From: Escherichia phage vB_EcoM_UP17
DNA length: 64,000 nucleotides
Sequence record: LR746137
Strand: one strand, 5' to 3'
Positions 17,620 to 64,000 of this stretch are shown here, piece by piece. Position 1 is the first letter of the stretch, and each line of letters begins with the position of its first letter. A program made the translations under genes and the position numbers. The notes below the pieces were generated by a model. The model did no database searches, was not told the DNA's origin, and was given only the letters and a program-made list of their open reading frames with translations.

Positions 17620-17691
17620 GGCCCTGTAGCTCAATGGGAGAGCTGTCGGCTCATAACCGATAGGTAGCTGGATCGAAACCAGCCAGGGCCA
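17620..17691 (+). tRNA. tRNA-Met (anticodon CAT)
   Basis: Hand-folded cloverleaf: acceptor GGCCCTG/CAGGGCC, anticodon loop CTCATAA, T-arm GCTGG-ATCGAAA-CCAGC, encoded CCA. Confidence 0.7.
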
Positions 17692-17696
17692 CCAAC

Positions 17697-17768
17697 GTCT
17701 TTATGGTGTAATGGATAGCACAGGAGTCTTCTAAACTCTTAGTCAAGGTTCGATTCCTTGTAAAGACA
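17697..17768 (+). tRNA. tRNA-Arg (anticodon TCT)
   Basis: Acceptor GTCTTTA/TAAAGAC, anticodon stem GGAGT/ACTCT with loop CTTCTAA, T-arm CAAGG-TTCGATT-CCTTG, CCA encoded. Confidence 0.7.
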
Positions 17769-17967
17769 CCAGAACATTTTAACATGAATTAGCTCAAGTG
17801 ATTTGAACCCACTACTGATCATAGTGGCAGAGAATGAGGCAAGTATGTCAGACATTGTAAACAAAGGCCACGGTTACATTAGAAGATATAAATGCTCGAA
17901 GAGCACCGTTCGCTGAGAACGGGGGTTGGTGGAGTCACCATTCATGGTAAAATGTTTTAAAAAACTA

Positions 17968-17996
17968 TTGACAACTAACATTATTTTATGTTAGAT
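17968..17996 (+). promoter_or_regulatory. sigma70-like promoter (TTGACA, TATGTTAGAT)
   Basis: AAAACTATTGACAAC followed 13 nt later by TATGTTAGATTATAAG, 10 nt before tRNA-Ser. Confidence 0.45.
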
Positions 17997-18005
17997 TATA
18001 AGTAT

Positions 18006-18093
18006 GGAAGGGCAAATCGACGTGGTGACGAAAACGGTCTTGAAAACCGCCGAGCTTGAAAGAGCCTTGGGAGTTCGACTCTCCCTCCTTCCG
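18006..18093 (+). tRNA. tRNA-Ser (anticodon TGA), class II
   Basis: Acceptor GGAAGGG/TCCTTCC, anticodon loop CTTGAAA, long variable arm, T-arm GGGAG-TTCGACT-CTCCC, CCA encoded. Confidence 0.7.
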
Positions 18094-18101
18094 CCAGATT
18101 A

Positions 18102-18184
18102 GGTAGATTGGTGAAATGGTAGCCACGACAGTTTGCTAAACTGTAGTCGGAAACGGCGTGTAGGTTCGAGTCCTACATCTACCG
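18102..18184 (+). tRNA. tRNA-Ser (anticodon GCT), class II
   Basis: Acceptor GGTAGAT/ATCTACC, anticodon stem ACAGT/ACTGT with loop TTGCTAA, long variable arm, T-arm GTAGG-TTCGAGT-CCTAC. Confidence 0.7.
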
Positions 18185-18314
18185 CCAAGTTGTTTTTAAT
18201 GTAGCGTTGCGGCTACTTACTTTAGCAGAGTAAATCTTCGGCAAGTGGCGGTAACCACTTTACCGATACCGCATAGTCAGTAAGGCGAATACTGGCTACT
18301 TTAAAAACAATTTT

Positions 18315-18395
18315 GTGAGATTGGCAGAGTGGTCGATTGCGGGGGACTGTAAATCCCTTCTGAAAGGCGCGGTGGTTCGAATCCATCATCTCACA
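18315..18395 (+). tRNA. tRNA-Tyr (anticodon GTA), class II
   Basis: Acceptor GTGAGAT/ATCTCAC, anticodon stem GGGGA/TCCCT with loop CTGTAAA, long variable arm, T-arm GGTGG-TTCGAAT-CCATC. Confidence 0.7.
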
Positions 18396-18404
18396 CCAAA
18401 TTAA

Positions 18405-18487
18405 GATGAGTTGGCTGAATGGTTTAAGCGGCGGACTGTTAATCCGTGTTCGAAAGAACGATATAGGTTCAAATCCTATACTCATCG
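18405..18487 (+). tRNA. atypical class II tRNA, anticodon loop CTGTTAA (reads as GTT, Asn) with 15-nt variable arm
   Basis: Acceptor GATGAGT/ACTCATC, anticodon stem GCGGA/TCCGT, variable region GTTCGAAAGAACGAT, T-arm ATAGG-TTCAAAT-CCTAT; isotype assignment uncertain. Confidence 0.5.
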
Positions 18488-18497
18488 CCAGAATTAT

Positions 18498-18575
18498 GGA
18501 CTTGTAGAGTTAAGGTAAAACCTCCAGTCGCCAAGAGGCTTCTGGAATTGCAGGTATCGAATCCTGCCGAGTCCC
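18498..18575 (+). pseudogene. degenerate tRNA-like element
   Basis: Good 7-bp acceptor GGACTTG/CGAGTCC and T-arm GCAGG...CCTGC, but T-loop is 8 nt (TATCGAAT) and no canonical anticodon arm or CCA could be folded. Confidence 0.3.
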
Positions 18576-18581
18576 AGATTT

Positions 18582-18653
18582 GCTCCTATAGTATAATGGC
18601 TATTACAACGGTTTTGTAATCCGTGGATCTCTGTTCGATTCAGAGTGGGAGCA
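18582..18653 (+). tRNA. tRNA-Thr (anticodon TGT)
   Basis: Acceptor GCTCCTA/TGGGAGC, anticodon loop TTTGTAA, T-arm CTCTG-TTCGATT-CAGAG, CCA encoded. Confidence 0.7.
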
Positions 18654-18929
18654 CCAACACAACATTAAGAGCACTGTGATTGATCGTCGTATCCTGTGCA
18701 CAAGGTCTGTTCGAAAGACAGTGTTCTTAGTATTGTGTTGATCACACAAAGAGTCACCTGAAACTTGACCGGAGTAGGGTTGGATGGGGCAAAAGAAGAA
18801 GCGGCTCTCCCATCGACAGCAACGAAGAATAATATTTGACTTTAGTTTTGTATTATTTTAAGTTAGCTTACCGAACGTAGGGCTAGTCACCCAACGGGAT
18901 ACTCGTCACTGTCCCACTCAATAAAACTA

Positions 18930-18959
18930 TTGACAACCAATAGTAAAATGTAGTATAGT
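18930..18959 (+). promoter_or_regulatory. sigma70-like promoter with extended -10 (TTGACA, TGTAGTATAGT)
   Basis: AAAACTATTGACAACC followed 13 nt later by TGTAGTATAGT, 11 nt before tRNA-Gly. Confidence 0.45.
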
Positions 18960-18970
18960 AAAGATGTAGG

Positions 18971-19041
18971 GCGTTCTTGGTGTAGCGGTAGCATTCCGTC
19001 CTTCCAAGTCGGCGGCACGAGTTCGATCCTCGTAGGACGCT
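18971..19041 (+). tRNA. tRNA-Gly (anticodon TCC)
   Basis: Acceptor GCGTTCT/AGGACGC, anticodon loop CTTCCAA, T-arm ACGAG-TTCGATC-CTCGT, CCA encoded. Confidence 0.65.
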
Positions 19042-19142
19042 CCAAATTATTTAATAAAGGGTTGCCAGAAAACTTTCTCTTTTACTCATGGTTTTCTCCT
19101 TCTCTCACACCTCTTCTGGTTGCCCTTCATTAAATGATTTAT

Positions 19143-19215
19143 TGGTTTGTAGTGTAGTCAGGTAGCACACGACACTTTGACTGTCGTAGGTTTGGTTCAA
19201 ATCCAGACAGACCAG
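19143..19215 (+). tRNA. tRNA-Gln (anticodon TTG)
   Basis: U1-A72 acceptor TGGTTTG/CAGACCA (as in enterobacterial tRNA-Gln), anticodon stem CGACA/TGTCG with loop CTTTGAC, T-arm TTTGG-TTCAAAT-CCAGA, CCA encoded. Confidence 0.65.
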
Positions 19216-19223
19216 CCATATAA

Positions 19224-19297
19224 CGGAATTTAGCTCAGTTTGGTAGAGCATACGCTTTGGGAGCGTAGGGTCGCAGGTTCGAATCCTGCAATTCCGA
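19224..19297 (+). tRNA. tRNA-Pro (anticodon TGG)
   Basis: Acceptor CGGAATT/AATTCCG, anticodon stem TACGC/GCGTA with loop TTTGGGA, T-arm GCAGG-TTCGAAT-CCTGC, CCA encoded. Confidence 0.7.
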
Positions 19298-19306
19298 CCA
19301 ATTTAA

Positions 19307-19377
19307 TGTTTCGTAGTTCAATGGTAGAACCCACGACTGATAATCGTGAGACACAAGTTCGATTCTTGTCGAAACAA
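19307..19377 (+). tRNA. tRNA-Ile (anticodon GAT)
   Basis: Acceptor TGTTTCG/CGAAACA, D-stem GTTC/GAAC, anticodon stem CACGA/TCGTG with loop CTGATAA, T-arm ACAAG-TTCGATT-CTTGT, CCA encoded. Confidence 0.65.
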
Positions 19378-19382
19378 CCAGT

Positions 19383-19452
19383 TTCCCGTTAGACTTACAG
19401 GATAAGAGTTCCACAGCTTATTGTGATGCTGGTTCGAATCCAGCACGGGATA
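19383..19452 (+). pseudogene. degenerate tRNA-like element
   Basis: Canonical T-arm GCTGG-TTCGAAT-CCAGC and 6-bp acceptor, but the anticodon region folds as CACAG-CTTA-TTGTG (4-nt loop) and no CCA is encoded. Confidence 0.3.
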
Positions 19453-19458
19453 CATAAT

Positions 19459-19534
19459 AGCGGGATAGAGGAGTCTGGTCGTCCTCGCCAGTTTCATATG
19501 CTGGAGATCATTGGTTCAAATCCAATTCCCGCCT
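19459..19534 (+). tRNA. tRNA with anticodon CAT (Met or lysidine-type Ile2)
   Basis: Acceptor AGCGGGA/TCCCGCC with mismatched 1:72, D-stem GAGG/CCTC, anticodon stem CCAGT/GCTGG with loop TTCATAT, T-arm ATTGG-TTCAAAT-CCAAT, CCA encoded. Confidence 0.6.
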
Positions 19535-19652
19535 CCAAATATCGCTTGCCAGCGGTATCTTTGAAGAACTTGCCTGGTTCCTTCTAAGATGGAGGGGTGC
19601 GACTCCTTAACGCACAATCATAATAAAGCATTTCAAATTAACAGTATTTATT

Positions 19653-58991: not shown

Positions 58992-58998
58992 TAAAAAA

Positions 58999-59026
58999 GG
59001 GAACCCGCAAAGGTTCCCTTTTCTTT
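58999..59026. terminator. bidirectional terminator between convergent fibre and ssb genes
   Basis: GGGAACC-CGCAAA-GGTTCCC hairpin flanked by AAAAAA and TTTTCTTTT. Confidence 0.55.
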
Positions 59027-59054: not shown

Positions 59055-59942
59055 TTAGAATGGGATATCATCGTCGAAGTCCATTGGAGGTTCTTCTTGA
59101 TTGCTTGGAGTTGGTTCTGGTTGTGGTTCAGGTTTCTTCTCTTCTTTCTTCTCTTCTTTCTTAGGTTGTTCTGCGGAACCACGAATGGCAGCAGCAACTT
59201 TATCAGACAGAGCCAGAACTTTACGAGCAGAGTCAATCAGATCTTCTACAGATACAGTCTTAATGGTATGGTCTTTACAAGCATTGAGAATAGCGTGACC
59301 AACAGATGCCCCAAGATCATAATCATTAATATCAACGCCACGAGATTCAGCAATTTCAGATTTCAGCGTGACAGTTGCAGATTGAACAACCCCAGCGATA
59401 TCGAAAGCATCGCCTTTAACACCATTACGAATCAGTTCCAGTGCACCATTTACTGCGTGACCAGTTTCCAGACCTACAGTATCACGTTTTTTATAGGACT
59501 GCTTAGGAGCAGCATCGTTGGAACCTTTATTGCCAGAAGATTTGTTAGACTTCTGAACACCATCGGTAGACAATACTGTAATACGAGATTTTTTAGTATT
59601 GTAGTAAGTCTTACCGCCTTTATTATCAACGCGATCAATATCAATACTTACTTCTACACCTTTTTCAATAGTGATCCAATTATCACCTTCTTTGACTTGC
59701 AGGTTTTCATAACCTTCTTTCAGTTCAATGTCACCAAGAGAAATCCAAACACCTTTCTCATCTGGTTTAGCACCTTTCTCTTTCAGAACAAGAGAAGCTC
59801 GGTGAGTTGAAACAATCGTTTTCCCTTCCCAATGAAAAGTTTTAGGTTCAGCGAATTTATCCAGTTTAACGTAGTCTACGATACCAGTTGCATAAGTTAC
59901 GGTTTTGCCTTTACGATCAGTTTCAGTATTAATTACGGACAT
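59055..59942 (-). CDS. ssb: single-stranded DNA-binding protein
   Basis: C-terminus PPMDFDDDIPF is the canonical bacterial-type SSB acidic tip; Gly/Lys/Pro-rich linker precedes it. Confidence 0.75.
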   Translation of the reverse strand: MSVINTETDRKGKTVTYATGIVDYVKLDKFAEPKTFHWEGKTIVSTHRASLVLKEKGAKPDEKGVWISLGDIELKEGYENLQVKEGDNWITIEKGVEVSIDIDRVDNKGGKTYYNTKKSRITVLSTDGVQKSNKSSGNKGSNDAAPKQSYKKRDTVGLETGHAVNGALELIRNGVKGDAFDIAGVVQSATVTLKSEIAESRGVDINDYDLGASVGHAILNACKDHTIKTVSVEDLIDSARKVLALSDKVAAAIRGSAEQPKKEEKKEEKKPEPQPEPTPSNQEEPPMDFDDDIPF

Positions 59943-59958
59943 TATTATCTCCTCTACA

Positions 59959-60351
59959 TTACATTAATTTTGCACAGAAAGAGCGGAGTCTTTCCATATC
60001 ATCTTGCTCTAACAGGTATTTACCTTTACCTATTCCAACTCCAATTTCACCATTAGGAAAATGAACTATTTGCACTGGGAAACCTCCGAGTTTAATTGTG
60101 GCAGCTTTGCCTTCTTCGTCTATAACGTTTCGGATTGTATCTTGCAGTGAAATGAATTCTTTGTTTGTAACAGTGGTTTCAATTATTTCAGATGTTTCGA
60201 CACGAGCAGTTAGCTTCTTGTTTCCACCTTGAATAACCAAAATTTGAAAATAAAAAGAGTTGTCAAGACCTACAACATTTTTCTCAACTAGTGTCAAACT
60301 GGTATAGTTTCCATAAACAGTTTCAACAGCTATCTTAGAACGTTCAGTCAT
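59959..60351 (-). CDS. hypothetical protein (130 aa)
   Basis: ORF from track between ssb and the nucleotidyltransferase. Confidence 0.35.
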   Translation of the reverse strand: MTERSKIAVETVYGNYTSLTLVEKNVVGLDNSFYFQILVIQGGNKKLTARVETSEIIETTVTNKEFISLQDTIRNVIDEEGKAATIKLGGFPVQIVHFPNGEIGVGIGKGKYLLEQDDMERLRSFCAKLM

Positions 60352-60396: not shown

Positions 60397-60990
60397 TTAC
60401 CAAGGAATATCATCTTCTTCCAATCTGGTATCTACTTGAGGTGGACGTGGAACCTTAACCTCTTTCACAAAACGAAGATATGGGAAACGTGTAGCAATTT
60501 TAATAACATGTTTGGCATCTTCTCTAACATCTTTGTGCAAGAAGCAGATCCCTGTTTCCAAGGTTGTTTCAAAATCTTTAGAATAATAACAGTCCTTCCC
60601 ATCAAATGCAGCCTGGCAGATGGAAAGATCAAACTCATTTAGAAAGGTTGTCATTACATTTGGGTCCATGATCATAAGGTTGCAAAGCTGACCGTCACGT
60701 TCAAACTCAAAAACGTGTTTAAGACCAGTGCCACCTTCATAACTATCAGAAGCCTCTTTGTTTCCTAGTTTACGAATATTGGTTCCCATTAAAGCAGATG
60801 CAATTAATCCTTGTATTTGTTCTTCAGTCCGATGTGCAGGAAGGGATGTATAGAAATCCAGATCACGTCCAGCAATATCAAGAATACGCCAATCACGAAC
60901 AGCACCGCCAGCCAAGACAGAATTAGGATCAGCGATCTTTAATACGGTAAGAATTTCTTTGGCAATATTGATTTGTTTTGATTTAGTCAT
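60397..60990 (-). CDS. minimal nucleotidyltransferase with CCA-adding/poly(A) polymerase head-domain signature
   Basis: VLAGGAVRDWRILDIAGRDLDFY matches GGxVRD...D.D of class II CCA-adding enzymes; only 197 aa; C-terminus EEDDIPW. Confidence 0.5.
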   Translation of the reverse strand: MTKSKQINIAKEILTVLKIADPNSVLAGGAVRDWRILDIAGRDLDFYTSLPAHRTEEQIQGLIASALMGTNIRKLGNKEASDSYEGGTGLKHVFEFERDGQLCNLMIMDPNVMTTFLNEFDLSICQAAFDGKDCYYSKDFETTLETGICFLHKDVREDAKHVIKIATRFPYLRFVKEVKVPRPPQVDTRLEEDDIPW

Positions 60991-61201
60991 TGATACGCTC
61001 CACAGTTACTTTTACAACATCGTCCATATTAATCTCATCCCCCAAGACCTCAATAACACCTTCCTCATAAAGTCGAGCACATTCTTCCCACACTTCAGCT
61101 TCCGTCATTCCACCTGCAATCTTATTTGCAAGACCTTTAATAACATCTTCATTTTGTTCATCAACAAGAATTGAAACATTAAAGCTCACTAATTTACGCA
61201 T
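60983..61201 (-). CDS. hypothetical acidic protein (72 aa)
   Basis: ATG behind AAGGAGAAAACA. Confidence 0.35.
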   Translation of the reverse strand: MRKLVSFNVSILVDEQNEDVIKGLANKIAGGMTEAEVWEECARLYEEGVIEVLGDEINMDDVVKVTVERIND

Positions 61202-61211
61202 TGTTTTCTCC

Positions 61212-61379
61212 TTATACTTCTAAACGGAAAGTTTCTTTAGATACAAAATCGTATCCACCTTTTTCAAGCCAGTCATTATAAACCTCATCGGCTTGAGACT
61301 CTATCATAAAATACCGAGTGGTAATTTCGTCTCCGACAATACGCACAATTTTATAGCAAATCATGATACCATTTCCCAT
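61212..61379 (-). CDS. small ORF (55 aa), not in track
   Basis: ATG overlaps the upstream stop (TAATG) behind GGAGGA; hand translation MGNGIMICYKIVRIVGDEITTRYFMIESQADEVYNDWLEKGGYDFVSKETFRLEV. Confidence 0.3.
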   Translation of the reverse strand: MGNGIMICYKIVRIVGDEITTRYFMIESQADEVYNDWLEKGGYDFVSKETFRLEV

Positions 61380-61591
61380 TAATCTTCCTCCAGATCAATT
61401 TCATTATAACAATGTATGCAGAAACCATCATTGTGCATATGTTGTTCATAAGACATATCTTTACCACAAGACCAACAACGGATATCCCCATCGTCCCATT
61501 CACGTTCTTCTTCGCCTTCAAATTCATCTGGTAGGTAAGGCATACCAAAGTAGTCTAAATCGTAACTCATATCTTCTCCTACCGAGTCCAC
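61379..61591 (-). CDS. small zinc-ribbon protein (70 aa)
   Basis: CWSCGKD ... CIHCYNE four-Cys pattern. Confidence 0.4.
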   Translation of the reverse strand: MDSVGEDMSYDLDYFGMPYLPDEFEGEEEREWDDGDIRCWSCGKDMSYEQHMHNDGFCIHCYNEIDLEED

Positions 61592-62157
61592 TCCTTACGT
61601 TGTTCAATATGTTCGAGCATATCGTTATACAATGTTTTAAGATGTGGAACAACTCTTTGATCTTCTGTTTCAAAAAACTTTGTAAGCTGTTCTGCTTTAG
61701 CTTTCAACCAACAAAGATGTGCTTGGAGTTCCGTATCGAAACGACCGAGTGTTATGATACGTCCTCCGATTTTAATATGGGCCTTATACTTCTTACGATC
61801 CTTCTCATAATTACATCCTACCATTTGACCTGACTTTTTTCTGTAGGCTAAAAACTTATTAAGATTTCCAGAAATCATTAAGCAAGTATCAGGGGAGTAG
61901 ACTCCCCCTCCCATAAGATCCTTATCAAGTTCCGAGTTTTCCCAGTCGTCCCAAGTTTCCAACCAAGAGTAGAAGTTGGAAAACAGCTTCCACTCTTCAC
62001 AAACCGTCACTCCATGGTAAACGACATCTCTTGCCTGTTGGCAAGATGAATAACACCTTCCCAACATTGCCATCCATTTCATATAAGCAGGGTGCATAAC
62101 CCCTTCAGGAGATCTTGCAGTAATGCTCCCATCAAAAACACCGTGACCATAAACCAT
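61579..62157 (-). CDS. AP2-domain protein, homing-endonuclease-like
   Basis: N-terminal HPAYMKWMAMLGRCY and KYKAHIKIGGRIITLGRFDTELQAHLCW resemble the AP2 DNA-binding motif seen in phage HNH-AP2 endonuclease genes; sits next to the DNA polymerase gene. Confidence 0.4.
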   Translation of the reverse strand: MVYGHGVFDGSITARSPEGVMHPAYMKWMAMLGRCYSSCQQARDVVYHGVTVCEEWKLFSNFYSWLETWDDWENSELDKDLMGGGVYSPDTCLMISGNLNKFLAYRKKSGQMVGCNYEKDRKKYKAHIKIGGRIITLGRFDTELQAHLCWLKAKAEQLTKFFETEDQRVVPHLKTLYNDMLEHIEQRKEWTR

Positions 62158-62186: not shown

Positions 62187-64000
62187 CTAATGGCAACTCG
62201 CCCAGGAATTACCCACATCATATCCAGCAGTAAGCTGAACATTAAGATTGTAAAATTCTCCAGCCTTAGTAACAGCTAAGGCAGCAAGTTCACCTGCCCG
62301 ACTATAGGCTGTAAACCATCCACCTTTGGGAGATTCATGAATGTTAGCCCAAATTTGTCCCGTCTCTTTTTCCTTATTATGCTTCCATTCTTCAACTTTA
62401 GCAAGGCATTCTTTATCAATTTTCTTTTGTTCTTCAGGATCGTCTACTTTCTTCCAACCTAATGATTCAGGTGAAAACCATTTGAATTCTACAAGGTTAC
62501 GAGAAACTTCAAGCTGGGCTTCATCGTGATATGCAATCATTTGTTGCACGAAGTCTTTATTCTTCCAGTCATCTTTAAAGAAGTCAACACTTAGCCCTTC
62601 TTCTTCGATCATGTCATCATAAATAACCATTGCACGTTTAGCACAGATAACCCCACCACTTTGGAACAGAGAGTTAAGAATCGCGTGAGCAGAACGAGTA
62701 GGAACCTTACGACCGTCAATACCCAAAACATATTGTTTACCAGTCTTAACCCAAAAATCGTTTAAACGTTCTTTAAGACGCGCCAATGGGAATGCAGCTT
62801 CCCAGAAAGCATCGAACACCAATTGACCTGTAAACTTGTCGCTACCAATTGTTTTAGCAACCTTGTCGGCTTGTGCACCATAGGTAATACCATACTTAAC
62901 AGATTTAGCAGGACTACGTTCAAATTTACGTCCAATAGTTTCAGTGATACGTTTTGCCATCATTGTGTGAACATCGTTAGGTTTCTCTAACAACAGAGCG
63001 TTACAATATTCGTGTGGCTCCGGCTCGTACCGCCAACAGTAGTGTGATTCAATTTTTGCTTCCAAAGAGTCGAAGTCGTAGCCGATCTGGAAGTATTTAG
63101 GAACCTCTACACCAAACAAGTTACGCATCTCCCACCCAAACAAAGATGTGACACGAGGAATATTAGCTACAGATCTATGCTTCATACGAGAGGTTGCAGC
63201 ATCACATGTAGCGGCTGGGGTAGGAATACGCCCATCCGCCCTTACTGCGGCTAAGAAACCTTTATCGTATTCTTGATCTTCTTCATCTTCTTCCCAATCA
63301 GCACCGCCACCTAAAATAGAGTTCCTACGATGCTTATACGTTAAGTATTCTACAATCTGTGTAGCATAAGGGAATTTCTCACCTAAAGCTTGCAGGTTAG
63401 GACAGATTTCTTTTTCCTGACCTTTGGTAAAACATGGGTTAGTCAATACTTTAAGACCGCGACCTTTACCTTTTGCTATACGCTCTTGAATCTTCCTTTC
63501 CAGGGTTTCCGGTGTGCACTCCAGATGATCACAACGATCCTGACAAAAATTAGAAGATAGGGTTTGCTCAACGTAAGCTCGAATACCTTTCTGAAGTTCT
63601 TCCTCGCTCTTTTTAATCTTGGTGCCAGATTTAAGAGTCAAGTCTTTATCTTTATATTCAGACGGTACCCAACCTAATCCTACAAGCCAGTTTTTAATAT
63701 GGGTTGTATCGTTCAATGTTGCAGGAATGTTAGGATCACATAGAGGCTCATCTGCTGCAACTGGCAGTTTCCACTCTTTCCCCAACATAACTAACCACCA
63801 ATCGCCATCCCTCTCTTCCAAATGACCATCATGTTTCTTAGCAAAATTGATCATATGGTTAGTTGGCTCTAAGTTCTTTTTAATTTGCAACTTAGGTGGA
63901 ATAAAAGCCTTAAGATAACCTTTTGTTGCTGGTTTAGGTGGCAAAATAGGCTCAACAAGTAAACGAAGACGCTCCATTTCTGCATCCAAAAAAGCAAGGT
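62187..64000 (-). CDS. DNA polymerase family A, C-terminal polymerase domain; N-terminus beyond window end
   Basis: Motif A-like IGYDFDSLEAKI, motif B RSPAKSVKYGITYGAQ (RxxxKxxxYGxxYG), motif C IAYHDEAQLEV; frame is open to the window edge. Confidence 0.75.
   Translation of the reverse strand, partial: LAFLDAEMERLRLLVEPILPPKPATKGYLKAFIPPKLQIKKNLEPTNHMINFAKKHDGHLEERDGDWWLVMLGKEWKLPVAADEPLCDPNIPATLNDTTHIKNWLVGLGWVPSEYKDKDLTLKSGTKIKKSEEELQKGIRAYVEQTLSSNFCQDRCDHLECTPETLERKIQERIAKGKGRGLKVLTNPCFTKGQEKEICPNLQALGEKFPYATQIVEYLTYKHRRNSILGGGADWEEDEEDQEYDKGFLAAVRADGRIPTPAATCDAATSRMKHRSVANIPRVTSLFGWEMRNLFGVEVPKYFQIGYDFDSLEAKIESHYCWRYEPEPHEYCNALLLEKPNDVHTMMAKRITETIGRKFERSPAKSVKYGITYGAQADKVAKTIGSDKFTGQLVFDAFWEAAFPLARLKERLNDFWVKTGKQYVLGIDGRKVPTRSAHAILNSLFQSGGVICAKRAMVIYDDMIEEEGLSVDFFKDDWKNKDFVQQMIAYHDEAQLEVSRNLVEFKWFSPESLGWKKVDDPEEQKKIDKECLAKVEEWKHNKEKETGQIWANIHESPKGGWFTAYSRAGELAALAVTKAGEFYNLNVQLTAGYDVGNSWASCH

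Follow-up and report, generated by a model that had tools for sequence, protein, structure and literature searches.

A mini-nucleotidyltransferase of Phapecoctavirus with an SSB-type C-terminal tip: a putative accessory enzyme of the phage DNA replication machinery

Class II CCA- and A-adding enzymes and poly(A) polymerase I possess a nucleotidyltransferase (NTase) head domain (PF01743), whose motif A is shared by a small protein encoded by Escherichia phage vB_EcoM_UP17. However, the class II enzymes are 400–470 aa long, comprise body and tail domains and exhibit the motifs RRD and EDxxR, whereas the phage protein has only 197 aa, lacks all these elements and exhibits a signature of its own. 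A stand-alone protein described as "CCA-adding enzyme head domain", NP_344798.1 from Streptococcus pneumoniae (2la3, 191 aa), has to our knowledge no assigned function, and it gave no match to the profile of the phage NTase family at E-values up to 10. Small phage NTases (phrog_1614/10174) exhibit the same fold and size as the protein from vB_EcoM_UP17 and are often encoded beside a DNA polymerase (DNAP) or a DNA ligase. In a survey of Pectobacterium Autographiviridae such NTase genes were found to adjoin the DNAP gene, and their distribution was found to be sporadic and host-linked (PMC7693777).

The C-terminus of the phage NTase resembles a peptide known from an altogether different context. 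The C-terminal tip of the E. coli SSB (SSB-Ct, DDDIPF) combines an acidic run with I-P-aromatic at a free C-terminus, following a disordered linker, and these features are common to the tail of the NTase; the differences are that in the NTase the tip is carried by an enzyme without an OB-fold ssDNA-binding core and that Trp invariantly takes the place of Phe. A passage in PMC10018359 puts the number of partner proteins recruited by the SSB tip at 17 or more. In phage T7, the family A DNA polymerase, gp5, has basic patches to which the helicase-primase gp4 docks by its acidic C-terminal tails. T7 gp2.5 possesses a similar acidic tail, which ends in Phe. The gene sets of T7 and phAPEC8 are alike, as both include a primase/helicase, PolA and an SSB-like protein; however, it is the helicase that is tailed in T7, whereas here it is the NTase that is tailed and the primase/helicase that is tipless, and the tip is of the E. 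coli type and not of the T7 type. Another E. coli phage encodes the SSB-like protein Bas52_0087, which has an FDDDIPF tip and triggers DRT10, with an action via host tip readers such as ExoI having been proposed (bioRxiv 10.64898/2026.04.29.721553). Bas52_0087 resembles an SSB-like protein encoded near the NTase (295 aa, see below), and not the NTase itself, in its SSB-like predicted architecture and E. coli-type tip; it exhibits two OB folds in the model, is larger than the 295-aa protein, and we infer that it belongs to a branch of 410–415-aa SSB-like homologues.

The window analyzed here, i.e. the whole stretch of 64,000 nucleotides (LR746137), is assigned to a ~148-kb genome of an E. coli myophage, a phAPEC8-like Phapecoctavirus (Stephanstirmvirinae), and the region shows 95–99% identity to the genomes of phAPEC8, SF1-1, 536P1 and other members of this genus. 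The NTase gene and its neighborhood comprise the following features:

62187..64000, minus strand: C-terminal part of the gene for a family A DNA polymerase (PolA), which continues beyond the window
61579..62157, minus strand: HNH endonuclease gene, an insertion relative to phAPEC8
60983..61591, minus strand: three small ORFs (72, 55 and 70 aa) upstream of the NTase gene and co-oriented with it
60397..60990, minus strand: coding sequence of the mini-nucleotidyltransferase, 197 aa, phrog_10174 (based on the phrog match and on orthologues)
59959..60351, minus strand: conserved 130-aa ORF, phrog_16560, between the NTase and SSB-like genes
59055..59942, minus strand: SSB-like protein, 295 aa, ending in DFDDDIPF
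58995..59022, no strand assigned: hairpin resembling a terminator, immediately following the SSB-like gene; the phAPEC8 annotation lists it as a terminator

The operon thus reads PolA, small ORFs, NTase, 130-aa ORF, SSB-like protein and terminator, the hairpin being taken as the operon end. The start codon of the NTase gene lies in an 8-nt overlap with the upstream 72-aa ORF and is preceded by a GGAG Shine-Dalgarno sequence, which, together with the match to phrog_10174 (E-value 4.5e-61) and the presence of orthologues with 58–96% identity, argues that the gene is real. Translation of the minus strand agrees with the description given in the original prediction (a 197-aa ORF with GGAVRD...DLD and a C-terminal EEDDIPW, less than half as long as the cellular class II enzymes). 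The SSB-like gene lies 455 bp downstream of the NTase stop codon, with the 130-aa ORF as the single ORF between them; searches of Pfam, PDB and PADLOC with this ORF returned zero matches. The phages of the genus Justusliebigvirus are syntenic (PolA, small ORF(s), NTase, 130-aa ORF, SSB-like protein) and retain the 130-aa ORF at the same position. The phage possesses 11 tRNA genes, located at 17620–19537, i.e. 41 kb from the NTase gene, and CCA is encoded in all 11 of them. In the GenBank records of Phapecoctavirus the NTase gene is labeled either "nucleotidyltransferase" or "putative tRNA nucleotidyl transferase / poly(A) polymerase".

The SSB-like protein is predicted to comprise an OB-like β domain (aa 1–125), a linker, a four-helix bundle (aa 156–255) and a disordered acidic tail, and the SSB models match its last ~40 residues alone. 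Hence, of the earlier statement that the phage SSB is encoded about 450 bp away, the distance, the DFDDDIPF ending and an OB-like predicted fold have held up, but by sequence the protein is not a canonical SSB. Its tail maps as follows:

59058..59093, minus strand: tail of the SSB-like protein, EPPMDFDDDIPF, identical to the last 12 residues of E. coli SSB

Recent capture of the tail of the host ssb gene at the DNA level was considered and ruled out, as the phage sequence and E. coli ssb agree at only 4 of 12 third codon positions in this segment. This disagreement, and the retention of a D-D-D-I-P-F-type tip in nearly all of 120 SSB-like homologues, argue that the identity of the tails is held by selection at the protein level, which in turn would imply that the phage depends on proteins reading the host-type SSB tip.

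The AlphaFold2 model of the NTase, calculated from 55 sequences and of good confidence (pLDDT 86.5, pTM 0.80), exhibits the Pol-β fold, and the fold search revealed that its head domain is closest to the class II enzymes. Class II CCA/A-adding enzymes and poly(A) polymerase I are the nearest structures and also the sole sequence matches, while none of the MenT/AbiEii toxins, CD-NTases or antibiotic NTases was the closest fold or profile match; the comparison of predicted structures thus sides with the class II relationship proposed originally, and not with a CD-NTase or an antibiotic NTase. At the sequence level the similarity is restricted to a short segment. The search of the PDB with the family profile identified CCA-adding enzymes with an E-value of 0.0025, and motif A could be aligned to 6ibp, 1miv, 3aqk, Cca and PcnB; however, the alignment to class II enzymes is confined to the first ~50 residues (the helix, GGAVRD and DLD), and in the hhalign comparison of the family profile with E. 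coli Cca and PcnB motif A alone aligns. The Pfam model PF01743 (PolyA_pol head) was matched with 13.8 bits, short of the cut-off of 23 (E-value 0.077), with weak matches to the same model in 38 of 55 relatives (best E-value 4.3e-5), and searches of Pfam, NCBIfam and PADLOC with the NTase and its neighbors yielded sub-threshold matches or none. The following elements were delineated in the globular part of the NTase:

60850..60915, minus strand: motif A (residues 26–47), LAGGAVRDWRILDIAGRDLDFY, with the GG turn and the catalytic aspartates D43 and D45
60706..60714, minus strand: V93-F94-E95 on a β-strand, with a candidate third carboxylate
60604..60639, minus strand: motif-B-like segment NEFDLSICQAAF, aligned by MAFFT with RRDLTINALAQ of E. 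coli Cca
60481..60525, minus strand: first neck helix REDAKHVIKIATRFP, aligned by MAFFT with motif D of Cca, GEDPLRVLRVARF

The motifs in the NTase read G28-G29-A30-V31-R32-D33 and D43-L44-D45, while the C-terminus reads E191-E-D-D-I-P-W197. Among 196 family members, G28, G29, D43 and D45 are conserved in 100%, W34 in 99% and R32 in 97%. Since the metal-binding carboxylates are invariant, the NTase probably still transfers nucleotides. E95 may provide a further catalytic carboxylate, an assignment that follows the topology of the Pol-β superfamily; in the same 196 sequences this position is occupied by E or D in 71% of cases and by N, Q, S or T in the remainder.

The counterparts of motifs B and D are defined by a MAFFT alignment with E. 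coli Cca and PcnB and not by structural superposition. Addition of these two sequences to the family alignment placed NEFDLSICQAAF opposite KRRDLTINALAQ (motif B) and REDAKHVIKIATRF opposite GEDPLRVLRVARF (motif D). According to this alignment, the ribose-recognition triad RRD of motif B is lost, with E119-F120-D121 at the corresponding position of the NTase; across the 196 family members F120 is conserved in 89% and C125 in 81%, while positions 119 and 121 are variable. The region of motif D (EDxxR) reads E157-D158-A-K-H161, with H161 replacing the templating Arg; in the family the ED pair is not conserved, position 161 is H in 53% and Y in 43% of the 196 members, and K164 is present in 97%. 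The resulting family signature is GGA[PV]RDW, Y84, F120, S-I-C125, F140, [HY]161-x-x-K164 and [KR]-F-P170. The NTase consists of the head and one neck helix, with the structured part ending around residue 175–178 and without tRNA-binding body or tail domains, and its globular part is acidic (pI 5.6). Derivation from the head and the first neck helix of class II CCA-adding enzymes/poly(A) polymerases is the best explanation of this architecture. Nevertheless, since RRD, ED and the templating Arg are not conserved in the family and the body and tail domains are missing, we do not class the protein as a CCA-adding enzyme, and its nucleotide and acceptor specificity are not readable from homology.

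Apart from phrog_10174, the NTase also matches phrog_1614 (E-value 7.5e-12). It is 95–99% identical to its counterparts in more than 60 Phapecoctavirus genomes and 58–65% identical to those in phiWec-like phages. An exhaustive profile search identified 1053 representatives clustered at 50% identity (E-value ≤ 1e-3), nearly all of them 175–235 aa long; the N-terminal extensions of the longer homologues showed no match in Pfam. The structural neighbors of viral origin in BFVD (E-values from 7e-17 for the best to about 1e-5 among the 50 matches listed) are small phage proteins named "nucleotidyltransferase / poly A polymerase head domain", of the same fold and size, and they come from T7-like phages of Pectobacterium, Dickeya, Aeromonas and Pseudomonas, from ICP1 (ORF223) and from giant viruses. 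The phiAS7 homologue is encoded between the DNA ligase and DNAP genes, while the ICP1 and VnaP homologues are encoded 1–3 kb from a DNA ligase gene. These neighborhoods point weakly to DNA metabolism, since accessory and anti-defense genes also sit beside the DNAP gene in small phages. The gene contexts of the distant tip-bearing or acidic-tailed homologues P0018 and P0031 were uninformative.

The part of the NTase that follows the neck helix is composed of two segments:

60421..60465, minus strand: Pro-rich variable linker, residues 176–190, in which the pLDDT falls to 63 and then to 45
60400..60420, minus strand: tip EEDDIPW, of the SSB type with Trp; 9 of 10 orthologues, with identities as low as 58%, retain DDIPW

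In the AlphaFold2 model the pLDDT is low from about residue 180 onwards and below 50 at residues 191–197, i.e. the tail is predicted to be disordered. Among ten orthologues (58–96% identity) the mean pairwise identity drops from 0.71 in the core to 0.37 in the linker, whose length differs between them as well, and reaches 0.92 over the last five residues. All endings were scanned for the 243 ORFs of at least 50 aa in the window and for ~650 ORFs of 40 aa or more in the remainder of the phAPEC8 genome, and an acidic run followed by terminal IP[FW] was found in the NTase and the SSB-like protein alone. The resemblance of the tail to the SSB tip thus exceeds chance. The primase/helicase (ending in ...PTDSNY), PolA and the DNA helicase of phAPEC8 have no such tail, and the small subunit of RNR has an unrelated tail of its own, DDEELDF. 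Based on the predicted disorder, the conservation of the tip as compared with the linker and its uniqueness in the genome, the tail of the NTase looks like a real short linear motif on a flexible tether. The C-terminal peptide of FtsZ contains DIPAF, and mimicry of this peptide was considered as well; it was discarded, as the tail is more similar to the SSB tip and DDIPW is found at the end of real SSBs.

In the family as a whole, a tip of the IP[FWY] type is present in 5 of 147 representatives. Acidic-aromatic endings of several kinds occur in separate clades near the protein encoded in the window, for example DDIPW (P0062), NDFPW (P0018), NDIPW and SDDDF (P0161, P0171), as well as EEFEF, EEIEF and PIPF (P0029-31, P0149). 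Unlike the NTase from the window, those of phiAS7 and Justusliebigvirus are without the IPW tip; the endings in the Justusliebigvirus branch are PWDEEF, WDDDKI and EEFKI, while the SSB there keeps DDDIPF. Since most of the family and Justusliebigvirus dispense with the tip even where the SSB retains it, the tail is not essential to the core function of the family. The last residue is Trp in all tip-bearing NTase orthologues and Phe in all SSB-like homologues; this consistent difference suggests that the two tips are not simply redundant, and the NTase and the SSB-like protein may have different partners.

To place the Trp variant in a broader context, IMG/VR was scanned with a DNA pattern for [DE]-D-D-I-P-W-stop, which retrieved at least 120 loci. 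Among the matches listed, all 117 that were parsed close an ORF of at least 53 aa, as chance hits in random frames would not do. The ORFs fall into at least 23 clusters, whose representatives were scanned with PHROG and Pfam. SSBs of at least six PHROG families end in [DE]DDIPW, viz. phrog_44 (the canonical OB SSB, with a match to the OB core of the E. coli protein as well), 18154, 9002/378, 743, 224 and the gp2.5-like phrog_112. As the same ending closes real SSBs of six families, the Trp variant can be regarded as a genuine phage SSB tip. The proteins other than SSBs include DNA helicases (phrog_16), a gp4-like primase-helicase (phrog_239), DUF6511/phrog_21342, phrog_862, phrog_3284 and several unclassified families, and the NTase itself accounts for at least 2 loci among the matches listed; to judge from these endings, SSB-type tips are common on phage replication proteins that are not SSBs. 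A second tip-bearing ORF was found in 3 of the 120 DDIPW loci, among the matches listed, and in 2 of these 3 it makes up the same pair of NTase and SSB-like protein.

We propose that the NTase is probably delivered to the DNA replication/repair machinery and is not an ordinary tRNA repair enzyme. It would be an accessory, probably active and template-independent nucleotidyltransferase, devoid of the parts that confer tRNA/CCA specificity, and in the Phapecoctavirus lineage its disordered Pro-rich linker would present E/D-D-D-I-P-W-COOH as a docking tip. The predicted partners are readers of the SSB tail, either host SSB-interacting proteins or, as in T7, the family A polymerase of the phage. 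Docking would bring the NTase to ssDNA and to the 3' ends of phage replication and recombination intermediates, where it would add nucleotides to the putative substrate, a 3'-OH. We give this proposal, in which a docked template-independent enzyme extends 3' ends, roughly even chances of being correct. Two observations count against it: nucleic-acid enzymes that act without a partner do not usually have an acidic globular part such as this one, and most of the ~1000-representative family as well as the sister genus are without the tip. Or perhaps a terminal NTase tethered to the replisome or the SSB hub tails or caps the 3' ends of phage ssDNA or of primers, thereby shielding them from tip-recruited exonucleases (ExoI) or blunting defenses that rely on ssDNA or cDNA, with [DE]DDIP[FW] serving as a portable address label on unrelated phage enzymes? 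This more specific scenario we regard as unlikely.

The function implied by the GenBank labels, repair or tailing of tRNA 3' ends, was also favored by the original prediction. The CCA ends of host or phage tRNAs would be restored or extended, e.g. after the attack of toxins that target the acceptor end, and the tail would be incidental or would tether the enzyme elsewhere. This explanation draws on the class II enzymes and poly(A) polymerase I being the nearest structures and the sole sequence matches, on the 11 tRNA genes of the phage and on the presence of E157-D158 at the ED position of motif D. However, the tRNA-binding body and tail domains are missing, with the structure stopping at about residue 175, xF[D/S] stands where the class II enzymes have RRD, and H or Y takes the position of the templating Arg. 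The globular domain is acidic, and the gene is located among those of DNA replication, far from the tRNA cluster; moreover, CCA is encoded by every tRNA gene of the phage, and E. coli has its own cca. We found no evidence for a tRNA repair function and consider it unlikely. The chemistry could also be directed elsewhere: the NTase might modify a protein side chain or a small molecule, or make a nucleotide product, with the tail serving for localization or regulation. Fold matches to families with such activities score below the class II RNA enzymes, no match to such enzymes was obtained from PADLOC or other family searches, and no candidate substrate can be named, which renders a target other than nucleic acid quite improbable.

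Two further explanations concern the tail itself. If it acted as a decoy, it would fill the SSB-tail pocket of one host protein (ExoI, RecQ, RecJ or PriA) and keep that protein off the phage ssDNA, while the NTase domain would serve as a scaffold or modify the bound protein by nucleotidylylation. An SSB-type motif in which Phe consistently gives way to Trp could be adapted to a single pocket, direct binding of nucleic acid is disfavored by the acidic globular domain, and a related SSB-like protein with FDDDIPF, Bas52_0087, has been proposed to interfere with ExoI and triggers DRT10; on the other hand, the invariance of motif A across the family indicates that catalysis matters, the abundant SSB-like protein of the phage, with its perfect host tip, would compete for the same pockets, and most family members have no tip. 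We find inhibition of a host protein by the tail very doubtful. The least probable of the readings weighed here is that the tail has no docking role at all, being either an acidic ending of chance or neutral origin or an element for intramolecular autoinhibition. That most of the family and the sister genus lack it would fit, and a passage in PMC3936761 describes acidic SSB tails that also fold back on their own DNA-binding site. It is difficult to reconcile with the conservation of the tip (0.92) beside a linker that is free to vary (0.37), with the ~0.004 further endings of this kind expected per genome by chance (a rough estimate from typical amino-acid frequencies), and with the use of the same peptide at the ends of many real SSBs and helicases; besides, no basic groove onto which the tail could fold back is obvious on the acidic globular domain. 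The proposal of an NTase docked at the replication machinery by its tail is thus the one we prefer.

The gene, its family and the NTase annotation were already known, and so were SSB-type tails on phage replication proteins other than SSBs, as in T7. No relevant publication emerged when the literature was searched for phage NTases with a tip like that of SSB, for "DDIPW" or for phage proteins that mimic SSB-Ct, nor was a description found of a mini class II NTase that carries an SSB-type tip. The original prediction had not recognized this combination as described, which holds for the combination but not for its components, as the NTase is annotated and tipped non-SSB proteins are common. If the tail is a docking peptide, it provides a 7-residue handle for the pull-down of partners and for activity tests of the family. 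It would also widen the idea of the SSB interactome, with the tip found on helicases, a primase-helicase, the NTase and several further families, and it bears on the way phages take over or assemble hubs of replication and repair, and on defenses that sense SSB-like proteins. The label "tRNA nucleotidyltransferase", present in dozens of E. coli phages that are candidates for therapy, is probably wrong, and our analysis argues for dropping it. The gene belongs to a large family of phage enzymes, with ~1000 clusters at 50% identity, and for about 17 of the homologues the Pfam accession PF26128.2 is precomputed.

The SSB-like protein encoded in the same operon as the mini-nucleotidyltransferase (NTase) carries the tail of the host protein:

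59058-59093, minus strand: tail of the SSB-like protein, EPPMDFDDDIPF, its last 12 residues identical to those of E. coli SSB

All 12 of these residues are shared with E. coli SSB but the third codon positions agree at only 4 of 12, which rules out recent capture of host DNA by the SSB-like gene and shows that the tail is a copy made at the protein level. In the window, the gene has its stop codon directly behind DDDIPF, and a terminator comes next. Some homologues continue for 15-17 additional residues (consensus APIGLQYGRNFLHCF), so that their tip is internal and its carboxylate masked:

L002:5026-5973: SSB-like homologue of phage Eryne with an extension past DDDIPF
P0201, P0213, P0214, P0229, P0241, P0254, P0296 and others: database homologues bearing the extension

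Apart from the extension, P0201 is 99% identical to the SSB-like protein of the window.

The NTase type of ending is found in many other viral proteins. On viral contigs from IMG/VR (loci L018-L137), at least 23 unrelated protein clusters end in [DE]DDIPW followed by a stop, including SSBs from six PHROG families as well as DNA helicases, a gp4-like primase-helicase, DUF6511 (phrog_21342), phrog_862, phrog_3284 and several unmatched families. Examples of such ORFs are:

L105:2801-4561
L022:34-975
L038:7888-8352
L020:3758-4480
L018:4-642

The [DE]DDIPW tip looks like a portable module. Two neighbouring tip-bearing ORFs were observed on viral contig L064, the sole such pair besides the NTase and the SSB-like protein among the matches listed (120 loci):

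L064:2265-2720, minus strand: 151-aa protein ending in DDDIPW
L064:626-1357, minus strand: 243-aa protein ending in LDEIPF

Proteins in general use acidic-aromatic C-termini for docking, and such ends are not always related to SSB; the acidic-aromatic R2 tail of ribonucleotide reductase (RNR) is the classical R1-binding end. The phAPEC8 NrdB, the RNR small subunit (L004:41244-42329), has this tail, with the sequence DDEELDF, at its C-terminus.

The small ORFs that accompany the NTase and SSB-like genes in the operon include:

59959-60351, minus strand: 130-aa ORF (phrog_16560) between the NTase and SSB-like genes
61379-61591, minus strand: 70-aa acidic ORF with CxxC...CxxC spacing (CWSCGKD...CIHC)

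The former always occupies this position in Phapecoctavirus and Justusliebigvirus, and searches of Pfam, PDB and PADLOC gave no matches to it; its product is a candidate partner of the NTase or of the SSB-like protein. The latter probably encodes a small zinc-ribbon protein. About 17 NTase homologues in the protein database (P0009, P0015, P0017, P0028, P0029 and others) carry the Pfam accession PF26128.2, which may stand for a recently curated family of such mini-NTases.

Elsewhere in the window lies a tRNA cluster, with the 3' CCA genomically encoded in all 11 genes:

17620-19537, plus strand: 11 tRNA genes (Met x2, Arg, Ser, Tyr, Asn, Thr, Gly, Gln, Pro, Ile)

Upstream of the small ORFs is a further gene:

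61579-62157, minus strand: HNH endonuclease gene, flanked by the DNA polymerase gene on one side and the small ORFs on the other

It is absent from phAPEC8 and most relatives, whose match ends at about window position 61581, and present in SF1-1, 536P1 and nieznany; it is probably a homing-endonuclease insertion.
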